From the NCBI GenBank assembly GCA_964576385.1, contig CAZNUS010000001.1, positions 30,668-94,311 of the forward strand: a stretch of 63,644 nucleotides of DNA. Direction: 5' to 3'. This document shows positions 4,647 through 63,644 of this stretch, piece by piece. The position numbers were made by a program, and so were the translations under genes. The stretch comes from an uncultured Methanosarcinales archaeon. GTDB lineage: Archaea; Nanobdellota; Nanobdellia; Woesearchaeales; GW2011-AR9. The notes under the pieces were generated by a model. It was given only the letters and a program-made list of their open reading frames with translations. It searched no databases and was not told the origin of the DNA. How positions within the stretch are numbered: position 1 is the first letter of the stretch; every line of letters starts with the position of its first letter.

Positions 4647-4778
4647 TTTTAAACATCTTTTCTTTTTATTTTTTTAAAATTTTTCTCAACATTAATCTTT
4701 GTCTTAATATCAATTTTAGTTAAATATTTATATAACTGGAACTATTCTACCCTAATGTTTAAAAAAGAGGAAGGCAGT

Positions 4779-7076
4779 ATGGTCATTTCTGTTCCAGGTT
4801 TAATTCCAGGGCTAATTTTATTTAGTCTGTTGATAATACTTAGTTCATCCTCTTCTGCGGAGATAGATTTAGATGCTAGCTTGCGATGGGCTCAAGAGAA
4901 TTATGTAGGGACAGATTTACCAAAAGGCGCTTCTTCCCTGCTTAAAAATGAACGGATTATTTTGTACGTTGAGGATAAAGAATGGGTTTTAAATGGAATA
5001 ACAAAGGATGGTAACGTTAAAAGTATTGGCAAAGGGGAACTAGACCATCCTACATTGCTTATTTACACCACTACAACTACCATTGAAGAAATATTATCAT
5101 CCCAAGATCAGATACGGGCTTTTATTGATGCTAAGAAAGGAGATAAAATAAGATTGCATCCTCTCGGTGTAGTTAGAACTGTTAAATTTTCTATTGCTTC
5201 CTTGCTCACCATATTCTTTGGAAACGATGATTCCATCCCGAAATCGGTTAATGAAGATTTGCCTGAAGATGTTCCTGAAAAAAATGTAAAACGGCGCCTG
5301 TATTCCGATACTGTCCGTCCTCTTCCCGAACCTAAGCCTCAGCAGTTGGAACCGCAATATATAACAGAAAGTGAAGAGACTGAAGAAACTGAAAACATCC
5401 CTTGTGAAACGATTGGTGATTGCTCTGATGGAAAGCCATTATGTTTTGACGGATTCTGCCGTACCCTTGATGAATTTATCGTATTAGCTAATTCCTGTGA
5501 TACTATCGAAGATTGTAGAGATGGTCAAATATGCGAAAGTAACAGATGTGTTAATGAGAGCATTCCTGAAGAAGATAGCGATGAGATAGCTTGTGAAGAT
5601 GTTGGCGATTGTCCTAGTGAGAAACCGTTCTGTCAAGGAAATATCTGTGTAAGCCTTTCTGAAGTTATCGCTGCTTCTAATTATTGTGAAACTACCGAAG
5701 ATTGCGCAGAGAATGAAGTCTGCAAAAATAATAGATGCGCTTCCTATGCTCCTCTTGGTTGGTACGCTCAGATATGTGAACTTGATGAAGATTGCCGTGA
5801 AGGCATGATTTGTAGTGACGGAAGATGTGCTATTCCTGTAGAGCCAGAAAATCCAGAAGAGCCAGATCTAGTAGGGCCTGAAAGTGAAGGAACAACATAT
5901 TCTTCTTGTGATTCTGATGAAGCGTGTGCTGCGGATGAAATTTGTGTAGCATCGGTATGTATTGTTGGTTATAGATCCTGTGATACTTCTGAAGATTGCA
6001 TAGAAGGTAAAATCTGCAGGGACGAAAAATGTGTGGCTTTAAGAGCAGTACCGCCTCCACAAGAACGTAGCGTTGGAGAAAGGATAAGAACTCTTTTTAG
6101 GACTATTTTTAGACAAGAGCCCATACCATATGGTGATGATGTTCGACCTCAAGAAGGAGATTTATGTGCACAGAATGATCGGTATAATAATGGGGTTTGT
6201 GATGAGGATTGCCCAAATCCTGATCCTGACTGTGAAGAAGCAGAAGATTGTGATAATACTATCGATGATGATGGAGACGATAGGATTGATTGCCGTGATT
6301 CAGACTGTGATTCAATAAGAAGGGATAGTGATAGAAAACGTTGCCAATATCGTATAGAAAGCAGGTGCTCTGATGATTTTGATAACGATGCAGATGGGTT
6401 TACTGATTGTGCCGATACTGATTGTGAAGACAACGATGCTTGCGCAGAACCAGAAGTTCCCGATATTTCTACGCTAGGATGGGGTGAGTTTGACCATTGT
6501 AAAAGAAGGTTATTAATTATTAATGATCTACAAACCTGTATAGGTAGTGGTTATCTCTTAAGCAATAAAGTGATAGCAGTGCGCATAGGGCCGGTAGGTG
6601 CAGATTTAACTCCTTTAGATTATGAGGTTTTAGAGCAGGATGGGGAATATGGCAGGTCAGCAAGATTATGTTCTAGCTTACAAACAATTGATCCAGTAAA
6701 CACCTTAGCAACAGCTAATGCTTCGGAGTTATATGACCAAGAAGGTTGTCCTGTTGATGGAACATATGAAGGAGTAAATGTAGGATACAGATATTTTGAT
6801 ATTCCCGTGGATGAAGATTCTACTGTTCCTATCACCTATGATCTGCAGATCAATTTTGGCAGGACAGAAGAATGTGTAGCTGGAGGGGACAAGAAAAAAT
6901 TTGAGAATAATATAAATTGCTGCGGCTATGGATCGTTAAAGAGTTTTCGAGTTCCTATAGAAAATCATGGAATAAACAAAGCTTTCTTTTTAAGATTAAG
7001 CTCAGTAGTTCCTGCTTGCGATTATTATGAATCTGCTCAGTGCAGCGTACCTAGCCTTTCCACGTGCGTAAGCTAA
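4779..7076 (+). CDS. secreted Cys-rich repeat protein (seven 6-Cys modules plus Asp-rich Cys motifs), putative surface adhesin
   Basis: An SD-like AGAGGAAGG lies 5-13 nt upstream of the ATG at 4779. A signal peptide is present (LILFSLLIILSSSSSA). There are seven repeats of C-[ED]-T/D-x-E/G-D-C-x3-5-C-x4-5-C. These are followed by CDNTIDDDGDDRIDCRDSDCD and CSDDFDNDADGFTDCADTDCEDNDAC, which look like metal- or Ca-binding Cys/Asp motifs. Confidence 0.7.
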   Translation: MVISVPGLIPGLILFSLLIILSSSSSAEIDLDASLRWAQENYVGTDLPKGASSLLKNERIILYVEDKEWVLNGITKDGNVKSIGKGELDHPTLLIYTTTTTIEEILSSQDQIRAFIDAKKGDKIRLHPLGVVRTVKFSIASLLTIFFGNDDSIPKSVNEDLPEDVPEKNVKRRLYSDTVRPLPEPKPQQLEPQYITESEETEETENIPCETIGDCSDGKPLCFDGFCRTLDEFIVLANSCDTIEDCRDGQICESNRCVNESIPEEDSDEIACEDVGDCPSEKPFCQGNICVSLSEVIAASNYCETTEDCAENEVCKNNRCASYAPLGWYAQICELDEDCREGMICSDGRCAIPVEPENPEEPDLVGPESEGTTYSSCDSDEACAADEICVASVCIVGYRSCDTSEDCIEGKICRDEKCVALRAVPPPQERSVGERIRTLFRTIFRQEPIPYGDDVRPQEGDLCAQNDRYNNGVCDEDCPNPDPDCEEAEDCDNTIDDDGDDRIDCRDSDCDSIRRDSDRKRCQYRIESRCSDDFDNDADGFTDCADTDCEDNDACAEPEVPDISTLGWGEFDHCKRRLLIINDLQTCIGSGYLLSNKVIAVRIGPVGADLTPLDYEVLEQDGEYGRSARLCSSLQTIDPVNTLATANASELYDQEGCPVDGTYEGVNVGYRYFDIPVDEDSTVPITYDLQINFGRTEECVAGGDKKKFENNINCCGYGSLKSFRVPIENHGINKAFFLRLSSVVPACDYYESAQCSVPSLSTCVS

Positions 7077-18354: not shown

Positions 18355-18499
18355 GTACTTATTTAGTTAGATGGCCAAGAGGTCAATTCTGCTAAGCTAT
18401 AGTGACAGGCACAGATGTGAAAATCTTCGAAATCACTACTATTTCTGATAAGAATTACTTCGAATTTTCACCAGAATTGACGGCCAACTAAATACGTAC
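18355..18499. repeat. MITE-like palindromic element, family B copy 1 (145 bp)
   Basis: Termini are GTACTTATTTAGTTAGATGGCC ... GGCCAACTAAATACGTAC. Internal arms pair (GTCAATTCTG/CAGAATTGAC and GTGAAAAT/ATTTTCAC). Confidence 0.85.
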
Positions 18500-18561: not shown

Positions 18562-19440
18562 TTAACCCATAACCCCATACCATTGAAATAATAATCTATC
18601 AGCAGCTTTAACTATGTCATATTCTTGTCCAGAAACTAGGATGCAAGTACCTAACAGTTCTATTTTTGGCTCGCCTAATCGTAATTCTACTACTGGCTTG
18701 CCTTTACTGTTTTGACAGTTGATTATCTCTCTTTCCGTACAAATATCATTCTTTTCAGTACAGGACCCTACTGGTATTCTATCCAATCCTTTAACGATAT
18801 TAAAGCTCAATTCTGAAAGCGCTAAAGTATAATATTTATCAGTAACATTTGGGTCTATGGCTATGAATACTTTTTCTCCTTGATTAAAAGCAACATCATC
18901 AAGCTTCCCGGAAATACTGATAGATTCTACTTCTTTTGGACCAAAGTGCAAAGGGACTTTTAACAAAGTATCTTTGCTCCTTAATTCCGCCCACCATAAC
19001 CCTTCATTCTTTACAAAACTGAACCCATTATACATATATCCTCTTGATTCGTCCAATTTTCCTTCACGATTCATGTTGTGGAGGTCTTCTAAAGTAATAG
19101 TTACCGTTGCTCCAGTAATCTTGTTATAAACCTTAAATCCGCCTAGAGTGAACGCTAGCATGGCAATGATAATTATTATACTTATTAAGATAATTTTTCC
19201 TTCAGATATTTTATTATTTGGTTCTATCTGTTCTTCATTCGTGTTTACTTCAAGTTTAGGGGTATCAATTAGGTTCTTGTCAACAGTATTATTGCTTAAG
19301 AGTGTGCCTTTAGTTGATTTCTTCTTAGGAACTTCTGTTAAATCATCAAATTCCCCGGCGAGTTCTTTATTCTCTTCTAAAAATTCATTGATATCTAACT
19401 CCGTCATCACTTCCTTCTTAGGAGCCTTCTTTTTAGCCAT
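18562..19440 (-). CDS. single-pass membrane protein, function unknown
   Basis: The start was refined to the ATG at 19440 (MAKKKAPKKEV). There is a TM segment IILISIIIIIAMLAFTLGGF, and the C-terminal ectodomain has 6 Cys. The gene is flanked by B1 and B2. Confidence 0.6.
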   Translation of the reverse strand: MAKKKAPKKEVMTELDINEFLEENKELAGEFDDLTEVPKKKSTKGTLLSNNTVDKNLIDTPKLEVNTNEEQIEPNNKISEGKIILISIIIIIAMLAFTLGGFKVYNKITGATVTITLEDLHNMNREGKLDESRGYMYNGFSFVKNEGLWWAELRSKDTLLKVPLHFGPKEVESISISGKLDDVAFNQGEKVFIAIDPNVTDKYYTLALSELSFNIVKGLDRIPVGSCTEKNDICTEREIINCQNSKGKPVVELRLGEPKIELLGTCILVSGQEYDIVKAADRLLFQWYGVMG

Positions 19441-19497
19441 AATTTCTTTTTCTGAAGCCTCTTTATATATTTTATGAAGAAGAATGTAATGAATCAA

Positions 19498-19712
19498 GCG
19501 TAAGTATTTAGTTAGGTGGCCAAGAGGTCAATTTTGCTGGGCTGTTATGACAGGCACAGATGTGAAAATAACCGAAATAACTGCCATTTCCGATAAGAAT
19601 TACCTTGGATTTTCACCTGAACATTGCTCTCATCAGCAACATATAAAATTGCATTTTTGAAATTTAACCAATTTGTGCAATTTTCTATATTGACGGCCAA
19701 CTAAATACGTGC
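19498..19712. repeat. MITE-like palindromic element, family B copy 2 (215 bp, carries a 68-bp nested insertion)
   Basis: It has the same termini and interior as B1 in the same orientation. An extra 19622-19689 contains its own hairpin AAAATTGCA...TGCAATTTT. Confidence 0.85.
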
Positions 19713-20136: not shown

Positions 20137-20198
20137 TTTCTTTTCCTCTTCTTATCTTTTTGTTATGATTATTTTCCGTCTATTTCTCCAACTAATCC

Positions 20199-20355
20199 GT
20201 ATTTGTTTAGCTCGGCGCGGTCAAATGGTGGATTTTGTCTTGGGAACGTTTATGAGGCCTATTGTTCGGTTCAATTGGTAAAACAATCTAGTTTTGGATG
20301 AATCGACGTAAATAAACCGACAAAACCCACGACCGCCGAATTGCTAAACAAATAC
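20199..20355. repeat. long-hairpin element, family A copy 1 (157 bp)
   Basis: GTATTTGTTTAGCTCGGCGCGGTC ... GACCGCCGAATTGCTAAACAAATAC has 13 perfect terminal bp. A GC-rich stem follows, and then GTGGATTTTGTC/GACAAAACCCAC. Confidence 0.88.
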
Positions 20356-20362
20356 ACCAATT

Positions 20363-21274
20363 CTAATTCGCCCGGTAATCATACTTCCAATCAGTAGGTT
20401 TAACATTTCGCATCAATTTAGCAGTAGCAATGAGATTTTTTGCTAATAATTTTGTTTCCTCGCCATAACATTCGCTTAAGACTATTTTTTTATCTTCCTG
20501 GGTTGAGTAACATACGGATGACATGGCATACATATTGCTAAATGGTGGGAAGATCATGCCAAAATGATTTAAAGTCATAAATAAGTTTGAGATGGTCATA
20601 GCAGCTCCTGCTTCATGTCCGGTAACTATAATCCCAGCAACTTTCCCCAGGAATCTTCGTAATAATCCGCTCCCTGGAACCTCATTGTCGGCAGTTAATT
20701 CTATAAATTTCATCTGTTTTTTATTCAGCTCTTTATCCTTGGGATTTTTTGGATCTGCAGGCATTAAGCTTCCATCTAAGCTAATACAGCGGTCGATGAA
20801 CGTAGCCATTAAAGTAGAAATTTTAAAATTATTAATGGGAGTTGCAAAAATGATTACATCTCCAGCGATAATCTTATCGTATAGGATATTGGTCATATCA
20901 TCCCCTGCTTTTCCGCGGGGATAGCAAGAGCAATAGAAATGGCATTGGGTGTTGGTTGTTGAATAACAAGCCTTACAATATTTGATGTTATAATTGCGTA
21001 ACGGAAGTAGTTCTATTTCTGCTCCTAAGTCCTTGCAATATCTTAAACATCTCTCTAATAATTCTTCAGAATTAGACTTCTCTTTGGCCATATCCATGTC
21101 ATCCCTGGCCGATCCAGAAATACCTACTACTTTTATTTTGCCGTTCTTTTTTTGGTTCATGCGTTTAGCTTCTGTTATTGCTGCGCTCCGTACCAGCTTA
21201 AACCTGTTTAAAGTATCTAAGTCAATCTTTAGAATTCTCATTAACTCTCTATCAGACAACTTTTTTTTGCTCAT
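20363..21274 (-). CDS. flavodoxin-fold NADPH-dependent FMN reductase / iron-sulfur flavoprotein (Isf)-like protein
   Basis: IKVVGISGSAR is present, along with a Cys cluster YCKACYSTTNTQCHFYCSC, DDMTNILYDKIIAGDVIIFATPINNF and GIIVTGHEAG. There is an N-terminal extension of about 55 aa. Confidence 0.6.
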   Translation of the reverse strand: MSKKKLSDRELMRILKIDLDTLNRFKLVRSAAITEAKRMNQKKNGKIKVVGISGSARDDMDMAKEKSNSEELLERCLRYCKDLGAEIELLPLRNYNIKYCKACYSTTNTQCHFYCSCYPRGKAGDDMTNILYDKIIAGDVIIFATPINNFKISTLMATFIDRCISLDGSLMPADPKNPKDKELNKKQMKFIELTADNEVPGSGLLRRFLGKVAGIIVTGHEAGAAMTISNLFMTLNHFGMIFPPFSNMYAMSSVCYSTQEDKKIVLSECYGEETKLLAKNLIATAKLMRNVKPTDWKYDYRAN

Positions 21275-24484: not shown

Positions 24485-24630
24485 TAAATAACTTGTAGTT
24501 AAATAATAACTAAATAATAACTAAATAATAACTAACAATTAGATTATAATTAAATAATAACTAAATCATAAATAATAATTTAATCATAAAAAATAACTAA
24601 ATTATAAATAACAATTTAATTATAATTAAA
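24485..24630. repeat. AT-only tandem repeat (an 11-mer AAATAATAACT x3 exact, then degenerate units)
   Basis: Three exact units lie at 24501-24533. Related TAAATAA(C/T) units fill the whole spacer between tal and the next gene. Confidence 0.8.
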
Positions 24631-24637
24631 AAAGATC

Positions 24638-30461: not shown

Positions 30462-30556
30462 TTATAGTAAATTGCAAAAATAATGGAACTTTTTATGTGC
30501 AATTTACTATTTAGCAAATCTCACAAATGTTCAATAATTAATGAGATTTGCTATTA
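30462..30556. repeat. double-hairpin element, family C copy 1 (95 bp)
   Basis: AGTAAATTGCA...TGCAATTTACT is followed by TAGCAAATCTCA...TGAGATTTGCTA. I read it as identical at all 95 positions to 47177-47271. Confidence 0.9.
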
Positions 30557-30617
30557 TTATAAAATTATAACCTAATATGATCAGGTTATGATCCAGTTCC
30601 TTGTAATAGGATAAAAT

Positions 30618-31991: not shown

Positions 31992-32116
31992 AGAGAAGTT
32001 TGAAAAATAGTAATTTTGGCAAATTAACTCTTATTTTACGCCAAAATTATGGCTATTTCAAATTCTCTTTAGAACTTTGCATATGATCTATTGAATTTTG
32101 CAAAGTTCTCTTAAGC
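31992..32116. repeat. double-hairpin element, family D copy 1 (125 bp)
   Basis: TTTGAAAAATAGTAATTTTGGC...GCCAAAATTATGGCTATTTCAAA is followed by AGAACTTTGCA...TGCAAAGTTCT. It matches 41995-42176 apart from a 58-bp insertion in the latter. Confidence 0.9.
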
Positions 32117-32186
32117 TATTTTCAATTTAATATAATTTACGTTATTGCCTGGTAAGATAGTTTCACGCATTTTTCTGATTCTTAGG

Positions 32187-32879: not shown

Positions 32880-32910
32880 GTACGTGTTTAGTTAGATGGC
32901 CAACTAAATA
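32880..32910. repeat. minimal family B element (31 bp; the two termini fused with no interior)
   Basis: GTACGTGTTTAGTTAGATGGCCAACTAAATA is the B 5' terminus joined directly to the B 3' terminus through the shared GGCC. Confidence 0.8.
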
Positions 32911-32993
32911 TCTCTCAAAAGGATATAACCTGTTAAAATTGGTGTAAAATTACACCAAAACTGTTTTATACTATTCTGAAAGACCCTCATCCA

Positions 32994-37769: not shown

Positions 37770-38065
37770 GGTTACTTGGTCTTTAATCCCCAGATCAATA
37801 GTTTAATTCTCCGCATTAATAATTGGATAGAAGTTTAAACAATGGTCATTTTTTGAGATTAACTAGGTTTAGCAACTTTTTCTCGTAAGGCCTTTTTTCT
37901 TGTAAGGCTTATACCCTAACTTATTTGAAAATTTTGTGTGTGCTCAGCAGTTACTTCCGTATCCCATTGAGGGAATGGTGTTCACCTAATCATCGCACAT
38001 TCCACGTTCTTTACTCTTTTAGAGGTATTAAAAGGCCACTTATAAAGTTTTACTCTCTATCTTTT

Positions 38066-38146
38066 ATTATGCAAAAAATAGCCAGAAAACCAGCGGCTTT
38101 AGTCGCTGGATGAATGGCACTATTTTTCTGGCTATTTTGCATCCTA
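38066..38146. repeat. hairpin element, family F1 copy a (81 bp)
   Basis: ATGCAAAAAATAGCCAGAAAA...TTTTTCTGGCTATTTTGCAT has an inner hairpin CCAGCGGC-TTTA-GTCGCTGG. It matches 52438-52518 at 78 of 81 positions. Confidence 0.9.
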
Positions 38147-38279
38147 AAAATGCGTAGTTTAGAAACCGTCTCAGTTCAAACCTCGCACGCGGAGAAAAGC
38201 AACGACTTTTCTAGCGTCCCAGAATTGTTAAGCAATTCTTAGGACTTTAGTGCGAGGTTAGACGGTTTCACGCATTTTT
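38146..38279. repeat. four-level nested hairpin, family F2 (134 bp)
   Basis: The outer stem is AAAAATGCGT..AGAAACCGTCT / AGACGGTTTC-ACGCATTTTT. Inside it are AACCTCGCAC/GTGCGAGGTT, GAAAAG/CTTTTC and AGAATTG/CAATTCT. The 3' 25 nt recur at 32160-32184. Confidence 0.85.
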
Positions 38280-38286
38280 ATGATTC

Positions 38287-39318
38287 TTATAAATCCCTAG
38301 ATGGCACTTTCAGGTCAAAACATACCCTAAACACTCCAGGAGAAAACTGTCCGCATTTTACTGCCCGCAGCACTTTTATAGAATATCCTAATTGTGAGCA
38401 CAATTTCTTTATTTTCTTTGCTTCCAAAGTGGTATCCTTTTCATTTATAAAACTGTACAAATGGATGATCCCTTTTGGCTTTATTTTCGGGAGAGCTATA
38501 TCCAGAAATTCCTCACTAGTTTTCGGCAGCGGCATAATAATTCTATCAAATGTACGTTTCAGAGTTGGCATCACTTTTCGCACATCGCCTAAATAGATAG
38601 CAATTTTATCGCTAAGATTGTTCCTTTCAATATTTGTTTCAGCATAATAATGCGCCAAAGGATTTATTTCAATCCCGTAAATTTTTTTTGCAGGTGAATT
38701 TTTAGCTAAAACTAATGGATACGGCCCTGCCCCAGAAAACATTACTAATACTTCCTCTCCTTTCTTAACCTGTTGAGCAATCCTTAACCTTTCTCCAGAT
38801 GACCTGGCAGAGAAATATGTTTTTTCCAGATGGAGAAAAATCTTTACTCCATTTTCCAAATGAGTTGTTTTTTTAGTTAATTTTCCGGCTAAAATACGCA
38901 CTTTTCTTGTCCTAAAAATACCCTCGTGCATATGTTCTTTTTTTACTACTGTTTCTATCTGCTTATTAACGTTCAAATAAGCTTCAGCAATAAGCTTTTC
39001 TTTGCTTTCCAATTCCCTTGGAATTTCTAAGATCATTATTTTTCCAACTATCTCTTGGCTTTTAGGGAGTAGCTGCATCTCTTCTTCAGTTAATTTTCCT
39101 TGTAATATTTTTTCTACGGTCAATGGCTTTGGCTTTTCAGGAAAATGTATCTTTACCTCGATTACTTCTGCATTAGGGATCTTCACTTTCTTTTTTAAGG
39201 GGAAGTACATAAACTCAAACTCTTTAAATGGCAATAATTCTGGTATGCCTAAGTTGCTTTTTAGAATAAACTGCTTAATCTTTTCCGCCTCTTTTAGTTG
39301 TGCCTTTACCGCTAACAT
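38287..39318 (-). CDS. trm5: tRNA (guanine37-N1)-methyltransferase Trm5/Taw22 family (Met-10+ like)
   Basis: Class I SAM motif VLVMFSGAGPYPLVLAK, in the typical three-domain length of about 340 aa. Confidence 0.75.
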   Translation of the reverse strand: MLAVKAQLKEAEKIKQFILKSNLGIPELLPFKEFEFMYFPLKKKVKIPNAEVIEVKIHFPEKPKPLTVEKILQGKLTEEEMQLLPKSQEIVGKIMILEIPRELESKEKLIAEAYLNVNKQIETVVKKEHMHEGIFRTRKVRILAGKLTKKTTHLENGVKIFLHLEKTYFSARSSGERLRIAQQVKKGEEVLVMFSGAGPYPLVLAKNSPAKKIYGIEINPLAHYYAETNIERNNLSDKIAIYLGDVRKVMPTLKRTFDRIIMPLPKTSEEFLDIALPKIKPKGIIHLYSFINEKDTTLEAKKIKKLCSQLGYSIKVLRAVKCGQFSPGVFRVCFDLKVPSRDL

Positions 39319-41994: not shown

Positions 41995-42176
41995 AGAGAA
42001 GTTTGAAAAATAGTAATTTTGGCAAATTAACTATTATTTTACGCCAAAATTATGGCTATTTCAAATTCCCTGAGTGAAGAAACTACTTCACTGGGGCACA
42101 AATGAAATCGTTGTTTCATTTCGTGCTCTTTAGAACTTTGCACATAATTTATTGAATTTTGCAAAGTTCTCATTAG
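41995..42176. repeat. family D copy 2 (182 bp) carrying a 58-bp nested insertion
   Basis: It is the same as D1 except for 42069-42126. That insertion is two hairpins whose cores are exact reverse complements of the cores at 2443-2454 (12 nt) and 2471-2486 (16 nt). Confidence 0.9.
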
Positions 42177-42249
42177 CTAAATAGTTTTTATTAGCTAAAT
42201 ATTTTTTTCCTTCCATAAAATTATAATTAAATACATCAATTCTACTAAA

Positions 42250-47176: not shown

Positions 47177-47271
47177 TTATAGTAAATTGCAAAAATAATG
47201 GAACTTTTTATGTGCAATTTACTATTTAGCAAATCTCACAAATGTTCAATAATTAATGAGATTTGCTATTA
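47177..47271. repeat. double-hairpin element, family C copy 2 (95 bp)
   Basis: Identical to 30462-30556. It lies between the MNT and HEPN genes and contains the only in-frame start candidate (TTG at 47263) for the HEPN ORF. Confidence 0.9.
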
Positions 47272-47757
47272 GCATCTAAAAATGAGCTAAATAAGAAAAT
47301 AGACACTTACTTGCATGATAAACAGATTTTTACTATTTCTGAAGAAGTTAACGAAATAAAAGGGCACTTGGAAAAAGCCGGGCATAATCTAAGATTTGTA
47401 GAGCACACTACAAAAACAGATTTTTCCGATTGGGTGTTGGTAGGCTGTTATTACACTTTGTATCATGCGGCTTTGGCTTTATTGCTGAAGAAAGGTTTAT
47501 TTTCAAAAAATCATGATGCTACTTTATGTCTTTTGATTAGAGAGTATTACAAAGAATTTTCAGAAGATGAATTTGAATTAATCAATTTTACTTTTCTGAA
47601 TAATGAAGATATCTTATTCTATATCCATGCTAAAGATAAGCGTGAACAAGCTTCTTATTCGACAAAGATTGCTTTTAAAAATTCTGATGTTAATCTAATA
47701 GTTCTAAAAACACGGCTTTTATTCAATAAGGCCAAAGAGATAATTACTAGCGAATGA
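47263..47757 (+). CDS. HEPN-domain protein (start uncertain; possibly 5'-disrupted)
   Basis: All-helical, about 160 aa, with GHLEKAGHNLRFVEH and KDKREQASYS (an R-x4-SY HEPN-like motif). It follows an MNT gene, which is the classic MNT/HEPN arrangement. There is no in-frame ATG near the 5' end. Confidence 0.55.
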   Translation: MLLASKNELNKKIDTYLHDKQIFTISEEVNEIKGHLEKAGHNLRFVEHTTKTDFSDWVLVGCYYTLYHAALALLLKKGLFSKNHDATLCLLIREYYKEFSEDEFELINFTFLNNEDILFYIHAKDKREQASYSTKIAFKNSDVNLIVLKTRLLFNKAKEIITSE

Positions 47758-52381: not shown

Positions 52382-52437
52382 TTTATGAAGCTCACGCTAT
52401 TAGTTTCCTATATTACAGATAACCACTTCTATTTCTA

Positions 52438-52518
52438 ATTATGCAAAAAATAGCCAGAAAACCAGCGACTTTAGTCGCTTGATGAATGGCACTATTTCTC
52501 TGGCTATTTTGCATCCTA
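52438..52518. repeat. hairpin element, family F1 copy b (81 bp)
   Basis: Matches 38066-38146 at 78 of 81 positions. It lies in the divergent promoter region between 52381 and 52684. Confidence 0.9.
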
Positions 52519-53493: not shown

Positions 53494-54174
53494 CTAAGGT
53501 CTCATCCACTTTACTTCATAATAAGTAACATCATTTTCATCATCAACTACTGCTAATAACAGCCGTTTCTTGGTGCTGTGCGCTACTCTGTTCTTTGCCG
53601 AGAATTCATGCCATGTAAATACCGAAGCTTCGTGTACTGGGAAAATGATCCATCGGGCATGATCTTCTCCAGGCTTTACTCCACGATCATATACCCGGAA
53701 ATCTGCGCCAAATTTTAAAGCAGTTTTTATGATGTATCCTCTATTTCTTATATCTTTGAACACACAATAGCGTATCCAGAAATTAGGCTCTACTTTTTTT
53801 GCTTTTTTAACATATGCTTCAAAAGGCATGACTCTGCCTGATTCTGTCTTCACTTCTAATCTTCCTTTTTCCATGAGGTAAAGTGCTTCTAATAATGATA
53901 CTTCTACTTTCCCATTATCATCTAACGTGCCAAAACGCGATTGGTTGTATAATTCTCTGGCTTCATCAGAAGATTCGGTAATTACTTTTGTTTCTGCCAG
54001 AATTCCGTGGACTACTCTTTTCACTTTCTTTTCTATAGGTTCTTCAACAGTGCTAGCTGGAAGCATTTCTGCTTTTTTTTCTTCTACCTTTTCTTCTGCA
54101 GTTTCTTTATCTTCCAAATCCTCTAGTAGCGTCTCCTGTTCTTCTGCTTTTTTCTTTTTGGATTTCTTACTCAT
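53494..54174 (-). CDS. endA: tRNA-splicing endonuclease (tRNA-intron lyase) with an acidic/Lys-rich N-terminal extension
   Basis: The catalytic domain context is RNRGYIIKTALKFGADFRVYDRG...HARWIIF. Confidence 0.8.
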   Translation of the reverse strand: MSKKSKKKKAEEQETLLEDLEDKETAEEKVEEKKAEMLPASTVEEPIEKKVKRVVHGILAETKVITESSDEARELYNQSRFGTLDDNGKVEVSLLEALYLMEKGRLEVKTESGRVMPFEAYVKKAKKVEPNFWIRYCVFKDIRNRGYIIKTALKFGADFRVYDRGVKPGEDHARWIIFPVHEASVFTWHEFSAKNRVAHSTKKRLLLAVVDDENDVTYYEVKWMRP

Positions 54175-54222
54175 AGAACCTCGATTTGCCTAGTGATTTT
54201 TAAACGTTTGCTTTAGAAAAAA

Positions 54223-54381
54223 GTATTTGTTTAGCTCGGCGCGGTCATCTTTGTTTGCCGAGTTTTTGGTATTTACCGGAAAGTTCTATTTACCCGCCTT
54301 ACTAACCACACAACCATAATTTCATCGACGGTACATCTTTAGCGGGGCTCGGTAAACGACCGCCGGAAGCTAAACAAATAC
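54223..54381. repeat. long-hairpin element, family A copy 2 (159 bp)
   Basis: It has the same 24-nt termini as A1 and A3, but the interior differs and still pairs (GTTTGCCGAG/CTCGGTAAAC). The junction AAAAAAGTATTTGTTT is repeated just downstream at 54383-54398. Confidence 0.88.
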
Positions 54382-54445
54382 AAAAAAAGTATTTGTTTGA
54401 TCGATAATTAACTTGTTCTCAACCACCAAAAACCATATTTTAAGC

Positions 54446-55093
54446 CTATTTTTCACTAAGAATAACCTTGAGCTCATTAATACTTTTCTTGGGATCAATA
54501 GATTTAGATACAAAACTTCCTGAGACAAAATAATCCGCTCCACCTTTTTTTGCATCTTTAATCGTTTGTAGGTTTATTCCTCCATCAACGATAATTTTTA
54601 TTTTAGAATTAAGCTTTTTTATTTTAGAGATTTTCTTCAGCTGCTCCGGTAAAAATGGCGCACCATAATATCCTGGATGGACAGTTAAGATCAGCAGGTA
54701 ATCTATAATCTCTAAATAACCTCTTAGTTGATCTATTCCTGTTTCTGGTCTCAAAGCAAAGGCAATTGGCTTCTTTTCTTTTTTCATCCAAGAGATAAAT
54801 TTATTTTTATCTTCAATAGCTTCCCAATGAGGGATGATTAAATTCACTTCTCTTTTATGCTTTTCAATCCACGTTTCTGGATCTTTGATCATCAGGTGGG
54901 CATTATAACTAAATCCTTTTCTTAGCTTAAACGGGAAATTAAAATAATTTGTAGGTACAAATTTTCCATCAGTAACATCTAGATGCAGTTCCTTTGAAAC
55001 TCCCCTTAACTTCTTTAGCAATACTACTAATTCTTCTTGATTTTTAGGCATGACTGAAGGCCAGATCTTGTCTTTCATCACTGCAGGCGCCAT
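54446..55093 (-). CDS. rpe: ribulose-phosphate 3-epimerase-like protein
   Basis: IWPSVM, HLDVTDGKFVP, HPGYYGAPF and VDGGIN. Confidence 0.7.
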   Translation of the reverse strand: MAPAVMKDKIWPSVMPKNQEELVVLLKKLRGVSKELHLDVTDGKFVPTNYFNFPFKLRKGFSYNAHLMIKDPETWIEKHKREVNLIIPHWEAIEDKNKFISWMKKEKKPIAFALRPETGIDQLRGYLEIIDYLLILTVHPGYYGAPFLPEQLKKISKIKKLNSKIKIIVDGGINLQTIKDAKKGGADYFVSGSFVSKSIDPKKSINELKVILSEK

Positions 55094-55626: not shown

Positions 55627-56244
55627 TTATTTTTCTCTGATTTTCCTTAACATTTGATCATGATATTTTGAAAACATCAACAACGAAAGTATAGCGCCAA
55701 TTAAAGCTAAGAGCATATCCCATTGGGTGTCCCAAATATCACCTTGCGTTCCTAAAAAAGCATTTCCAGTTCCTGGAGAAGTTACTAACGATGCACCCCA
55801 TTCTAACAATTCATACCCTGCGCTGATCATTAACACTACGCTTATGACTAAGAAGAACAGCATCTTTCCTCTCTCAAGCTTGGTATTTCTCAAAAGAACT
55901 TCTCTGATGATGATTGCCGGGAAAAAACCTTGGGCTAAATGACCTAAACGATCGTAATGATTTCTGGTCAAATCGAAATAATCTTTGATCCAATTAAATA
56001 AAGGATTTTCTGCATAAGTGTAGTGTCCTCCAACTATTAAAAGGATGGAATGAACCGCCACAAACACATAGACCATGTTGGTAAACTTAAATTTTGGATA
56101 CGTTGCAGCAAGGATGCCTATACCAATTAAAGCAGGAAATACTTCTAAAAGCCAAACACCATAATCTTTAGGATCGATCAACGACCAAATTAAAATCGCT
56201 AAAACGATAATCCCCAAAATGACTAAGAATCTTTTTTGTTTCAT
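55627..56244 (-). CDS. DUF2238 (YjdF-like) integral membrane protein
   Basis: About 6 TM segments. RNHYDRLGHLAQGFFPAIIIRE resembles the conserved YjdF-family loop. Confidence 0.45.
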   Translation of the reverse strand: MKQKRFLVILGIIVLAILIWSLIDPKDYGVWLLEVFPALIGIGILAATYPKFKFTNMVYVFVAVHSILLIVGGHYTYAENPLFNWIKDYFDLTRNHYDRLGHLAQGFFPAIIIREVLLRNTKLERGKMLFFLVISVVLMISAGYELLEWGASLVTSPGTGNAFLGTQGDIWDTQWDMLLALIGAILSLLMFSKYHDQMLRKIREK

Positions 56245-57155
56245 GCTTTACCTTTGCTTCCCAACAATGTAATTCTTTGTTCAACTACCTTGGCGATTTG
56301 TTCCCGAGCTGGTGCTAACATATTTCTAGGATCAAATTCTTCTGGCTTATTCTTAACAACCTTCCGGATGCCTACATCAAATGCTAATCTTAAATCCGTA
56401 TCCATATTCACTTTACAGATGCCTTGTCTAATTGCTGCTTTTACTTGAGTATCAGGAACTCCCTGCATTTCTCCCAGCTTAGCTCCATATTTCTGAGCCA
56501 GATGTACAAGTGATATCGGTACGCCAGAAGCTCCATGCAGAACTAAAGGTATTTTCACTTTCTGCCTGATCTCTTTTAACAAATCGATCCTTAGCCGTGC
56601 TTTTCCTGCAAATTTATAAGCTCCATGTGAAGTTCCAATGGCTACTGCCAAAAAATCACAGCCAGTTTTCTCCACAAATTCTTTTGCTTTGAATGGATCT
56701 GTGTATAGGATATTTCGCGCCTCTACTTTATCTTCTGCGCCTCCTATTGTTCCCAGCTCAGCCTCAACAGAAACACTTTTTTGATGCGCTAAATGAACTA
56801 TTTTCTTAGTAAGTGATATATTTTTCTCAAAAGGAAAATGTGATGCATCAATCATCACTGAAGAATATCCCACTTTGATCGCCCGTTTAATTATTTTGAT
56901 ATCTCTTCCATGATCAAGATGTAAGGCAATAGGAATTTTAATCTTTTCAGAAGCGGTTTTGACCATGCCATACAAAAGATCCATCCCGGCGTATTCGATA
57001 GCTCCTTCTGACGTTGCTAAGATTAATGGAGATTTTAATTTGACCCCTGCCTGCACAATACCTTGCATGATCTCTAAGTCATTGATATTGAAATGCCCTA
57101 TAGCATAATGTCCGCGTTGGGCTTTTTTGAGTAAAGTTTTGGTGTTAGCTAACAT
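56241..57155 (-). CDS. fba: class II fructose-bisphosphate aldolase
   Basis: GHYAIGHFNINDLE, HLDHG and IGTSHGAYKF. A 4-nt overlap with the downstream membrane gene is present. Confidence 0.85.
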   Translation of the reverse strand: MLANTKTLLKKAQRGHYAIGHFNINDLEIMQGIVQAGVKLKSPLILATSEGAIEYAGMDLLYGMVKTASEKIKIPIALHLDHGRDIKIIKRAIKVGYSSVMIDASHFPFEKNISLTKKIVHLAHQKSVSVEAELGTIGGAEDKVEARNILYTDPFKAKEFVEKTGCDFLAVAIGTSHGAYKFAGKARLRIDLLKEIRQKVKIPLVLHGASGVPISLVHLAQKYGAKLGEMQGVPDTQVKAAIRQGICKVNMDTDLRLAFDVGIRKVVKNKPEEFDPRNMLAPAREQIAKVVEQRITLLGSKGKA

Positions 57156-62128: not shown

Positions 62129-62740
62129 ATGCCTAAAAACAATTTCCTGTTAGTAGATCTCAATGAACCTCAAACCAAAAAGCTGGCGGAAACCATCACT
62201 TCAGAAACCAGCCGAAAAATATTAAATTATTTGGCTGATAAAGAGCACGGCACAGAAGCGCAAATATCTAAAGAATTAGCTTTACCGATCTCTACAGTGC
62301 ATTACCACCTTCAAAAACTGCTCGAAGCCAGCTTGCTGAAAGTGGAAGAATTTCATTATAGTCCAAAAGGGAGGGAAGTGAATCACTATCAGCTTGCTAA
62401 CAAGTACATTATTATCACCCCGCAAAAAATATCCGGGTTAAAAGAGAAATTGAGAGGGATATTGCCAGTTTTAGGGATAAGTTTAGGTATTGCTGCAGTG
62501 ATAAAAATAGTAACTTCCTTTGATTCAGTCTTCTTTAAAAGCAGCTCTATAGAAGCTATCAGTGAAGAAACTGCGGAATACTCTAGTTTTATGGTCGCTG
62601 AAAAAGTATCTGAAGTTGTTCCTGCAATTTCTCAATCTATTGACATAGCATTATGGTTTGCAGTAGGAAGTGTAACTACTGTGCTAATTTATGTTATTTT
62701 TGTTATAGTTAAGGAAAAATATCTTCGGAAAAGAAGTTAA
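62129..62740 (+). CDS. ArsR-type winged-helix protein with C-terminal TM segments
   Basis: ETSRKILNYLADKEHGTEAQISKELALPISTVHYHLQKLLEASLL is followed by two hydrophobic segments. Confidence 0.65.
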   Translation: MPKNNFLLVDLNEPQTKKLAETITSETSRKILNYLADKEHGTEAQISKELALPISTVHYHLQKLLEASLLKVEEFHYSPKGREVNHYQLANKYIIITPQKISGLKEKLRGILPVLGISLGIAAVIKIVTSFDSVFFKSSSIEAISEETAEYSSFMVAEKVSEVVPAISQSIDIALWFAVGSVTTVLIYVIFVIVKEKYLRKRS

Positions 62741-62764: not shown

Positions 62765-62924
62765 GTATTTGTTTAGCTCGGCGCGGTCAAATGTGTGGAT
62801 TTTAAATTGGGAACGTTTATGAGACCCATCGTTCGGTTTCCTCGATTCAACAGTTTATTTTTGGATGAATAAACGCATTCATAAACCGACAAAATCCACG
62901 ACCGCCGGATTGCTAAACAAATAC
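62765..62924. repeat. long-hairpin element, family A copy 3 (160 bp)
   Basis: It has the same termini as A1 and A2. The interior is closely related to A1 (GTGGATTTT/AAAATCCAC and GTTTATGA/TCATAAAC). Confidence 0.88.
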
Positions 62925-62947
62925 AACAAAATTAAAAAAATAAAAAT

Positions 62948-63002
62948 TTATCTCCTTCTTTTAACCCACCTTACGCCTAGCCATACTAATGCGCCTGCGA
63001 TT
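62948..63002. repeat. 55-bp exact direct repeat, copy 1 (a gene 3'-end remnant on the minus strand)
   Basis: Identical to 63590-63644. On the minus strand it reads ...AIAGALVWLGVRWVKRRR-stop, a TM anchor plus basic tail. No long ORF lies upstream of it. Confidence 0.85.
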
Positions 63003-63471: not shown

Positions 63472-63589
63472 TTTCACCAAAATCAGAATTTATTGAAAAG
63501 TGATTATCTTTAACATGAAAAAAAAGCAACTGAAATGCGTGTTATTCTTCTAGATAAAAATAACTTTTCAACAAAATAAATTAAAAAAA

Positions 63590-63644
63590 TTATCTCCTTC
63601 TTTTAACCCACCTTACGCCTAGCCATACTAATGCGCCTGCGATT
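63590..63644. repeat. 55-bp exact direct repeat, copy 2 (runs into the window edge; probably the 3' end of a minus-strand gene)
   Basis: Identical to 62948-63002. Similarity with small indels extends about 20 nt further on the A/T-rich side (62924-62947 vs 63569-63589). Confidence 0.85.

Follow-up and report, generated by a model that had tools for sequence, protein, structure and literature searches.

Does a family of long hairpins in archaeal DNA consist of mobile elements or of genes for a structured RNA, and what maintains its fold? The question is raised by a stretch of 63,644 nt from an uncultured archaeon of the Woesearchaeales (contig CAZNUS010000001.1, positions 30,668 to 94,311; the whole of this stretch is called the window below), in which three elements of about 160 bp, copies A1, A2 and A3 of what we call family A, share their ends (Table 1). 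An initial reading of the letters, referred to here as the original prediction, had offered two alternatives: a family of transposable elements of the miniature inverted-repeat type (MITEs) mobilized through their terminal inverted repeats, or a family of genes for a structured RNA. The first alternative has held up, on the strength of 8-bp target-site duplications, empty sites and a palindromic target, and a non-mobile RNA gene family has not. We consider it very probable that A1 to A3 belong to an undescribed MITE family of DPANN/Woesearchaeota archaea, one subfamily of which, S1, keeps a conserved folded core.

Three copies with the same ends

The boundaries first proposed for the three copies proved exact when they were checked on the sequence. 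Each copy opens with the same 24-mer, GTATTTGTTTAGCTCGGCGCGGTC, and closes with GACCGCCG, three or four further bases, and then GCTAAACAAATAC. The shared left end was thus described correctly for all three copies, whereas the degenerate pattern given for the right end is one base too long for A2, in which three bases, not four, separate GACCGCCG from GCTAAAC (GGA-A). The outermost 13 bp, GTATTTGTTTAGC...GCTAAACAAATAC, form perfect inverted termini in A1, A2 and A3. The exact 13-mer occurs six times in the window, at both ends of each copy, against 0.01 occurrences expected, and none of 100 dinucleotide shuffles reaches six, which bears out the perfect 13-bp terminal stem of the original prediction.

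Between these ends, A1 and A3 are 84% identical over their full length (BLAST with family members), and A2 has only the outer ~24 nt of each side in common with them; both the shared interior of A1 and A3 and the different interior of A2 had been recognized at the outset. Each copy folds end to end into a hairpin, with free energies of -54.7 (A1), -57.6 (A2) and -52.8 kcal/mol (A3) and z-scores of -4.96, -6.13 and -5.14, respectively; none of 200 shuffles folds as well. The arm pairs that had been singled out, GTTTGCCGAG/CTCGGTAAAC and GTGGATTTTGTC/GACAAAACCCAC, are real, and they lie within a helix that covaries strongly in an alignment of 20 sequences. All three copies are intergenic, and a BLAST search of the window with all family members revealed no fourth.

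Relatives at unrelated sites

We scanned 596 Gb of species-representative genomes with one terminus plus GGCG, a 17-base gapped pattern for which hundreds of chance matches are expected in a data set of this size, and most of the matches are indeed chance. A clear excess of DPANN archaea was observed, comprising five Candidatus Woesearchaeota metagenome-assembled genomes (MAGs; G+C 33-47%) and "archaeon DeMMO3_35". Most of the non-archaeal matches, together with loci L012 and L019, were set aside as chance, having no partner terminus, hairpin or duplication (L numbers designate the related loci). In the archaeal loci a second terminus, which the pattern does not require, is present in inverted orientation 129-255 nt away, mostly at 154-160, and it is within one mismatch in nearly all of them. 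A scan of metagenomes for both termini 141-171 nt apart yielded 74 further contigs, and viral contigs gave no match with three patterns. The original prediction would have been weakened by an absence of other copies together with that of a transcript; the pattern scans instead found more than 100, at unrelated sites in at least six archaeal MAGs and 74 metagenome contigs. From these we extracted 105 paired elements, 89 of them distinct.

Several properties recur among the relatives. The flanks within the largest clusters are all different. Full copies measure 129-255 nt, with a mode at 154-160, mini-elements measure 40-49 nt, and none contains a gene. Exact termini and a size window of 141-171 nt were required in collecting the metagenome set, and only the genome-scan set is unbiased in size; in the latter, 18 of the 28 listed copies, window copies included, are 154-160 nt long. 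Nearly all distinct copies (87 of 89) lie outside open reading frames (ORFs); their median distance from the preceding stop codon is 24.5 nt.

The mini-elements, which are made up of the two termini plus a few bases from the interior (L006:2897-2945, L077:3406-3445 and L006:~4778-4824), may be deletions across the hairpin or excision remnants. We also observed that the terminus, read as GTA TTT GTT TAG, supplies an in-frame stop. The neighboring ORF ends in the element's own TAG in six cases (L128:3828-3983, L096:1581-1738, L133:10637-10792 and others; distance -12), and at L128 both convergent ORFs do so. At L145:7165-7319 (compare L002:~7150) the element is located between a conserved AAAAATTAATAAATG box, possibly a promoter of the TATA box/B recognition element (TATA/BRE) type, and the start codon of the downstream gene, a position that would place it in that gene's 5' leader.

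Target-site duplications and empty sites

The wider set of copies supplied the search for target-site duplications that the original prediction had proposed. Among 91 non-redundant copies with flanks, an 8-bp duplication is perfect in 42 and matches at seven of eight positions in another 22. Lengths of 6, 7, 9 and 10 bp give no signal, the offset control yields at most 6/8, and shuffled partners match perfectly in 0.8% of trials. Because the duplicated octamers all differ, the copies represent independent insertions, and the insertion sites are independent in several species. Two pairs of filled and empty sites are available: L098 (filled) and L174 (empty), with flanks ~90% identical and the target TCTCTTTT, and L145 (filled) and L002 (empty), from a different species. 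At both empty sites the target is present in a single copy. The reconstructed targets are AT-rich and have the palindromic consensus TA-N8-TA, in full TA-NAWWWWTN-TA. A palindromic target preference is typical of a dimeric DDE enzyme.

The elements thus have the features by which MITEs are defined: they are short and non-coding, carry terminal inverted repeats, are flanked by duplications of fixed length and variable sequence, occupy unrelated sites in several genomes and differ in presence or absence between related loci. The duplications, the insertion sites, the empty sites and the target preference directly support the conclusion that A1, A2 and A3 are MITE copies that have moved through their terminal inverted repeats. 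In the mechanism we propose, a non-coding segment, mostly ~155-160 bp in length and bounded by the 13-bp inverted termini, would be recognized at these termini by a transposase supplied in trans. Insertion would take place through cuts staggered by 8 bp, with duplication of 8 bp of the target, and would favor AT-rich, roughly palindromic targets, which in these genomes would mostly be found just past stop codons.

A covarying Y-shaped core in subfamily S1

The 89 distinct copies comprise more than 30 interior classes with only the termini in common. In ~71% of copies the arms pair by at least 10 pairs beyond the termini, and some classes lack such pairing. We aligned 20 members of the class to which the window copies belong, subfamily S1, and found a conserved Y-shaped fold, that is, a three-way junction. 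The 13-bp terminal helix (H1) is outermost. Inside it lies the GC helix CGCGGTC/GACCGCCG (H2), followed by an A-rich bulge of 5 nt on the 5' arm only and by a 7-bp helix (H3) whose sequence is free but always complementary. Inside H3 is a junction with CGAG on both arms, which in 16 of the 20 S1 copies forms a tandem G.A/A.G next to a G-C pair; a side hairpin on one arm only (H4) and an apical stem-loop (H5) complete the fold. A2 is among the four S1 copies without the CGAG...CGA junction, the CTCG of its 3' arm pairing with CGAG so that the segment is fully Watson-Crick, and A1 and A3 have no CGAG motif at all. A kink-turn at the CGAG/CGAG junction was considered and rejected, as the tandem G.A has Watson-Crick pairs on either side and lacks a 3-nt bulge.

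In the S1 alignment 91% of cells are paired, and 19 of the 39 pairs have changed on both sides. The covariation score is reached by none of 500 shuffles, a control that does not model relatedness, and pairing falls to 35-41% in controls with slid partners. Among 56 non-redundant copies that have the core, H3 takes 28 distinct forms, nearly always perfectly complementary, with one-sided changes almost absent, and a sister class has five covarying pairs in the helix equivalent to H3. The structure-preserving change of the interior that had been noticed between A2 and the other two window copies therefore holds on larger alignments, and the S1 fold is maintained by compensatory change. The covariation expected of a structured RNA is present, in a test to which RNA and folded DNA look the same. 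A search of Rfam (Rfam 15), which the original prediction had named as a check on novelty, matched no known family on any copy in the window and seven related loci, either at the gathering score or at E <= 1.

Several weak asymmetries between the strands hint at a role as RNA or as a single strand. In tandem contexts, copies whose model "+" strand runs with the flanking genes outnumber the others by 21:9 (p = 0.043); for copies with a stop no more than 70 nt away the ratio is 22:9 (p = 0.03). On the model strand G.T pairs outnumber A.C pairs 54:29, or 31:17 when the poorly aligned H4 is left out, and the conserved mismatch reads G.A/A.G on this strand and C.T/T.C on the other.

The same core behind other termini

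A covariance model built from the S1 alignment (R1) was searched on both strands. S1 copies score 82-157 bits on one strand and 33-40 bits on the other; the values on the plus and minus strands are 113.8/36.7 bits for A1, 130.2/39.4 for A2 and 102.1/33.1 for A3. The model also recognizes, at 47-67 bits and in one orientation, the class found in Woesearchaeota of 44-47% G+C (clusters 0 and 2), and, at 51-67 bits and over the full model length, elements with the termini GTACGTATTAAGTTAAG...CTTAATACGTAC. Interior classes 3, 4, 6 and 7 reach ~25-30 bits on both strands through the terminal helix only, and they have perfect duplications even though they are without the core. Elements with GTACGTATT termini are flanked by 8-9-bp duplications.

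The core is thus found behind at least three kinds of termini, and family-A termini enclose it in some elements and not in others. Transposition does not require the core, because core-less elements with the same termini have clean duplications. Dispensable and yet recurrent behind other termini, the S1 core acts like a conserved module or cargo.

The third terminus class, GTACGTATTAAGTTAAGTCTGTGC...GCACAGACTTAATACGTAC, belongs to the Woesearchaeota of 44-47% G+C and combines the same core with 8-9-bp duplications (L143, GGTAAGTT; L077, CGTCTTTAG). One of its copies, L147:7855-8013, has a ~33-nt direct repeat (tttaatag.tattttataatgattatgttttt) at its flanks in place of 8 bp. The window itself contains a second family, B, with termini GTAC(T/G)TATTTAGTT...AACTAAATACGT(A/G)C. 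The first copy of family B is a diverged relative with different termini, and it matches the S1 model over its full length, so that it is one of the elements with the core behind other ends. The second was not reported in the covariance-model search of the window; it is 84% identical to 18355-18476 over its first 122 nt. These two full copies flank an unannotated gene, 18562-19497, in direct orientation. The 34-nt mini-element of family B has its counterparts in the family-A mini-elements of 40-49 nt at L006 and L077.

Weighing the explanations

It is very improbable that the elements are stationary multi-copy genes for a structured RNA rather than mobile DNA. Such genes would account for the strong covariation, the defined three-way-junction fold and the strand-specific covariance-model scores, but not for 8-bp duplications of unrelated sequence at most copies, for the existence of empty sites, or for perfect inverted termini common to elements with unrelated interiors, and no Rfam match was obtained at E <= 1. 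A derivation from repetitive extragenic palindromic (REP) or BIME-like repeats, or from the IS200/IS605-derived palindrome-associated transposable elements (PATEs), with movement by an HUH single-strand transposase, would agree with the palindromic, intergenic and abundant nature of family A. REP/RAYT and IS200/IS605-derived systems, however, have no terminal inverted repeats and no target-site duplication, and they insert next to a fixed short motif. The regular terminal inverted repeats and the fixed 8-bp duplications of variable sequence described here, together with the fact that no TnpA/TnpB-like ORF was seen in the window, leave this derivation scarcely credible.

We retain the reading of family A as MITEs with a conserved folded core in S1, against which the following observations weigh. 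The duplications of the window copies are decayed only (6/8, 6/8 and 7/8 for A1 to A3), and no empty site was found for A1, A2 or A3, the only other assembly of the organism also carrying A2. Neither the window nor ~0.73 Mb of related loci yielded an autonomous element or a transposase with family-A termini. The invariance of the termini and the mode in size are partly built in by the metagenome selection. Repair between the arms of folded DNA, instead of selection, could likewise be the source of the compensatory changes. As for a role of one particular strand, among the three window copies both A1 and A2 run antisense to their neighboring genes; counted by gene sense alone, G.T and A.C pairs stand at 35:30, with no asymmetry; and the strand asymmetries are weak and partly alignment-dependent, with counts that are not independent of one another and with p values that are marginal and uncorrected for relatedness and multiple looks. 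Because their duplications are only decayed, the window copies look old.

We then considered why the fold is kept. The most likely reason would be that a single-stranded form matters, and this form could be read-through RNA from the upstream gene, in which the element would serve as a 3'-end hairpin, or a folded DNA strand. As a layer on the MITE reading, it is possible that the fold is kept as RNA, as a read-through 3'-end module for transcript stabilization, processing or termination, such that copies and lineages keeping the fold in the right orientation are retained. The short distance from the upstream stop, the co-orientation with genes and the excess of G.T on the model strand are in line with this possibility. 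So are the conserved tandem G.A junction, which on the opposite strand would read C.T/T.C, an unstable mismatch, the conservation of the core behind three kinds of termini, and a bacterial precedent, bcr1, which is transcribed and whose structure is kept by compensatory changes (PMC3184786). The antisense placement of A1 and A2, the even count by gene sense and the marginal, uncorrected p values argue against it, and so does the lack of a relative in Rfam. In addition, the sister subfamily is without a G.T excess (20 G.T to 17 A.C in arbitrary cluster orientation, 17:20 on the model "+" strand). Alternatively, the fold may be kept at the DNA level, either because a fold-back or cruciform brings the termini together and gives well-paired copies an advantage in transposition or by arm-to-arm conversion in folded single-stranded DNA, and paired changes would then arise without any host function; we regard this, too, as possible and do not lean toward it. 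It would fit the ~71% of copies, of many unrelated interior classes, that pair arm to arm by at least 10 pairs independently of any one core, the near absence of one-sided changes in H3, and the 34-49-nt mini-elements that look like deletions across the hairpin. Conversion, however, would erase the one-armed 5-nt bulge, the one-armed H4 and the conserved G.A/A.G mismatch, and the core-less, poorly pairing clusters 3, 6 and 7 still have perfect duplications, so pairing is not required for mobility. We favor selection on the folded single strand, RNA or DNA, because arm-to-arm repair explains the paired changes and not the one-armed bulge, the side hairpin or the mismatch. The more specific proposal that the ~130-nt Y-shaped core is a functional single-stranded module, most likely a 3'-end RNA element, which DPANN archaea would spread through their small genomes on at least three MITE end classes and which would have persisted despite deep sequence turnover and the exchange of termini, is somewhat doubtful.

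A source of the transposase was sought in several ways. Pairs of termini with at most four mismatches, 400-6000 bp apart and with a duplication, were absent from the window and the ~0.73 Mb of related loci, in which de novo detection of inverted repeats with an 8-bp duplication also found no other such element. Clustering of 554 ORFs from the loci returned housekeeping genes as the recurrent families, and Pfam and NCBIfam scans of 46 window ORFs gave no transposase family. A tblastn/phmmer search for an IS6-type transposase found none in these sequences, a weak test that used an approximate IS26 query. The transposase may be encoded by the host or a virus of the DPANN cell rather than by the DPANN cell itself.

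Setting of the window copies

A1 follows the stop of an FMN-reductase-like gene (20363-21274, minus strand) at a distance of 7 nt, and its model "+" strand is antisense to this gene. Its left flank, ACTAATCC, matches the right flank at 20356-20363, ACCAATTC, at six of eight positions, a decayed target-site duplication at best; such a match alone is weak in AT-rich DNA, as ~6% of shuffled partners reach at least 6/8. A2 occupies a 271-nt spacer between the stop of ribulose-phosphate 3-epimerase (54446-55093, minus strand) and the start of the tRNA-intron endonuclease EndA (53494-54174, minus strand), and its surroundings have the identical arrangement in NCBI JACPNB010000019.1. A scan for sigma-70 promoters and intrinsic terminators around A2, not designed for archaea, returned nothing. 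A3 is located 24 nt past the stop of an ArsR/HTH regulator gene (62129-62740, plus strand), with which it is co-oriented, and its flanks AAAAAAAT and AACAAAAT match at seven of eight positions.

The junction of A2 had been described as duplicated downstream, and AAAAAAGTATTTGTTT is indeed present at 54217-54232 and again at 54383-54398. The partial terminus within the second occurrence is a remnant of a second, mostly deleted element that abuts A2 head to tail. One parallel exists among the 105 elements, in L006, with the order end, 8-nt spacer, end. The suggested insertion of A2 beside an older terminus is plausible; the arrangement in both fits the re-use of a regenerated target.

On the right of A3, the segment 62927-63002 is repeated 642 nt downstream at 63569-63644 with 89% identity. 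The latter comprises the 3' end of a DUF4349 gene (L190) together with the region downstream of it, and 62927-63002 therefore looks like a short gene-end fragment; the homology begins at the A3 boundary. An interpretation of 63569-63644 as an empty paralogous site for A3 was dropped, since the homology is limited to the right flank.

Table 1. Coordinates of the elements and repeats described in the text (positions in the window unless a locus number is given)
Feature	Position	Strand	Description
Copy A1	20199-20355	+	157 nt; MITE, subfamily S1
Copy A2	54223-54381	+	159 nt; MITE, subfamily S1
Copy A3	62765-62924	+	160 nt; MITE, subfamily S1
Left 8-bp flank of A1	20191-20198		ACTAATCC
Solo partial terminus	54389-54398	+	GTATTTGTTT; 7 nt (AAAAAAA) after A2 right end
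Family B copy 1	18355-18499	+	termini GTACTTATTTAGTT...AACTAAATACGTAC; full S1 model, 48.1 bits, E 1.9e-10, positions 1-157
Family B copy 2	19500-19712	+	213 nt; internal insertion; repeat family D3/D14/D18
Family B mini	32880-32913	+	34 nt; two termini only (GTACGTGTTTAGTTAGATGGCCAACTAAATATCT)
Third-class copies	L077:1850-1997, L077:4763-4911, L143:622-768, L121:9182-9330, L146:1021-1169, L105:182-329, L147:7855-8013
Repeat pair	30462-30575 / 47177-47290
Repeat pair	38056-38146 / 52428-52518
Repeat pair	31992-32118 / 41995-42179
Repeat pair	32139-32184 / 38244-38289

Other repeats and the host DNA

Small palindromic repeats belonging to several families abound in the genome. Besides families A and B, the window has at least four further repeat pairs (Table 1), intergenic and mostly palindromic, with 83-97% identity. 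A sub-threshold match of 38078-38137 to an Rfam microRNA family is surely spurious and arises because the segment is a hairpin. At 24489-24633 two genes are separated by a tandem array (TAAATAATAAC...) that is AT-rich and has spacings of 11 and 18 nt.

With a G+C content of ~36%, the window is archaeal, as seen in its housekeeping genes for EndA, aRF1, the alpha and beta subunits of PheRS, CysRS, a FEN1-type nuclease and TrmB regulators. Contigs of the NCBI MAG assembly GCA_016185745.1 (JACPNB01) match the window at 100% identity, and its proteins are also encoded on a 147,931-nt NCBI contig. Sequencing run SRR12113424 contains the organism as well. A segment of 127 nt (56510-56636) inside the gene for class-II fructose-bisphosphate aldolase (56241-57155) is absent from the otherwise identical JACPNB010000019.1, in which the aldolase gene is not called; this probably reflects a difference in assembly. 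No tRNA or transfer-messenger RNA was detected in the window by ARAGORN. The related MAG locus L045 has two Rfam tRNAs of 109-111 nt (1571-1679 and 2792-2902), which presumably contain introns; intron-containing tRNAs fit the presence of EndA next to A2.

Significance and comparison with known elements

Family A is an undescribed MITE family, an ordinary kind of element that is widespread in the small-genome DPANN/Woesearchaeota archaea. Beyond the routine is its conserved, covarying three-way-junction core, dispensable for mobility yet common to several terminus classes, and the failure to detect any transposase in the window and the related loci is also of note. DPANN archaea have very small genomes and yet dense sets of small palindromic repeats, of which one family is now defined by its termini, 8-bp duplication, target preference, fold and distribution. 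This definition lets annotators recognize such repeats. The elements account for some assembly breaks and, because the terminus supplies an in-frame TAG, explain some altered gene ends; their copies can serve as markers of recent genome change between closely related populations. Should the core function as RNA, it would represent an archaeal equivalent of the structured MITEs of bacteria, bcr1 among them, and would offer an experimentally tractable 3'-end element in organisms not yet open to genetic manipulation.

Hairpin-folding MITEs are well known in bacteria. Correia/NEMIS of Neisseria, ERIC, RUP and MITEAba12 are short and intergenic, carry terminal inverted repeats, produce target-site duplications, form a long hairpin when transcribed and are moved in trans. 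Family A resembles them in its small size, terminal inverted repeats, target-site duplication, intergenic location and hairpin, and differs in that they have other termini and duplications (TA in the case of Correia) and bacterial hosts. We know of no conserved core common to different terminus classes among Correia and the other bacterial MITEs. Archaeal MITEs are known as well, namely SM1-SM4 of Sulfolobus and those of Halobacterium and Haloquadratum, and the described ones are tied to known parent insertion sequence (IS) elements. They are like family A in being non-autonomous and in residing in archaeal intergenic DNA; unlike them, family A has no parent that could be found in the window or the ~0.73 Mb of related loci. 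A 2024 census of prokaryotic MITEs, which gives counts and not families, places a Woesearchaea genome among the highest archaeal densities, at 105 per Mb (PMC11602168). When we searched the literature for the terminus sequence, the only matches were to primers, by chance, and we found no description of the terminus or the family.

Members of the IS6/IS26 family generate 8-bp target duplications and have short conserved inverted repeats with GG tips, a cTGTt motif a few bases from the tip and a caaa motif; the family is abundant across archaeal lineages, and two MITEs are listed for it (PMC7986276). Family A shares the 8-bp duplication, and its TTGTT at positions 5-9 recalls cTGTt. The defining GG tip is GT in family A, however, and caaa is absent, so that kinship with IS6 is only a lead and not an assignment.

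In style, family-A elements are closest to the bacterial bcr1 and Correia elements. In an article that also provides a general description of such bacterial MITEs, bcr1 of the Bacillus cereus group is reported as a non-autonomous element of ~155 bp with short direct repeats, dispersed non-conservatively between strains, that is transcribed and in which compensatory changes keep a defined multi-stem structure (PMC3184786). It differs from S1 in being bacterial, in having 5-bp rather than 8-bp direct repeats, in its unrelated sequence and in a two-stem, cruciform-like fold. With its similar length, lack of autonomy, short flanking direct repeats and structure-keeping compensatory changes, bcr1 is nevertheless the best functional analogue of subfamily S1.

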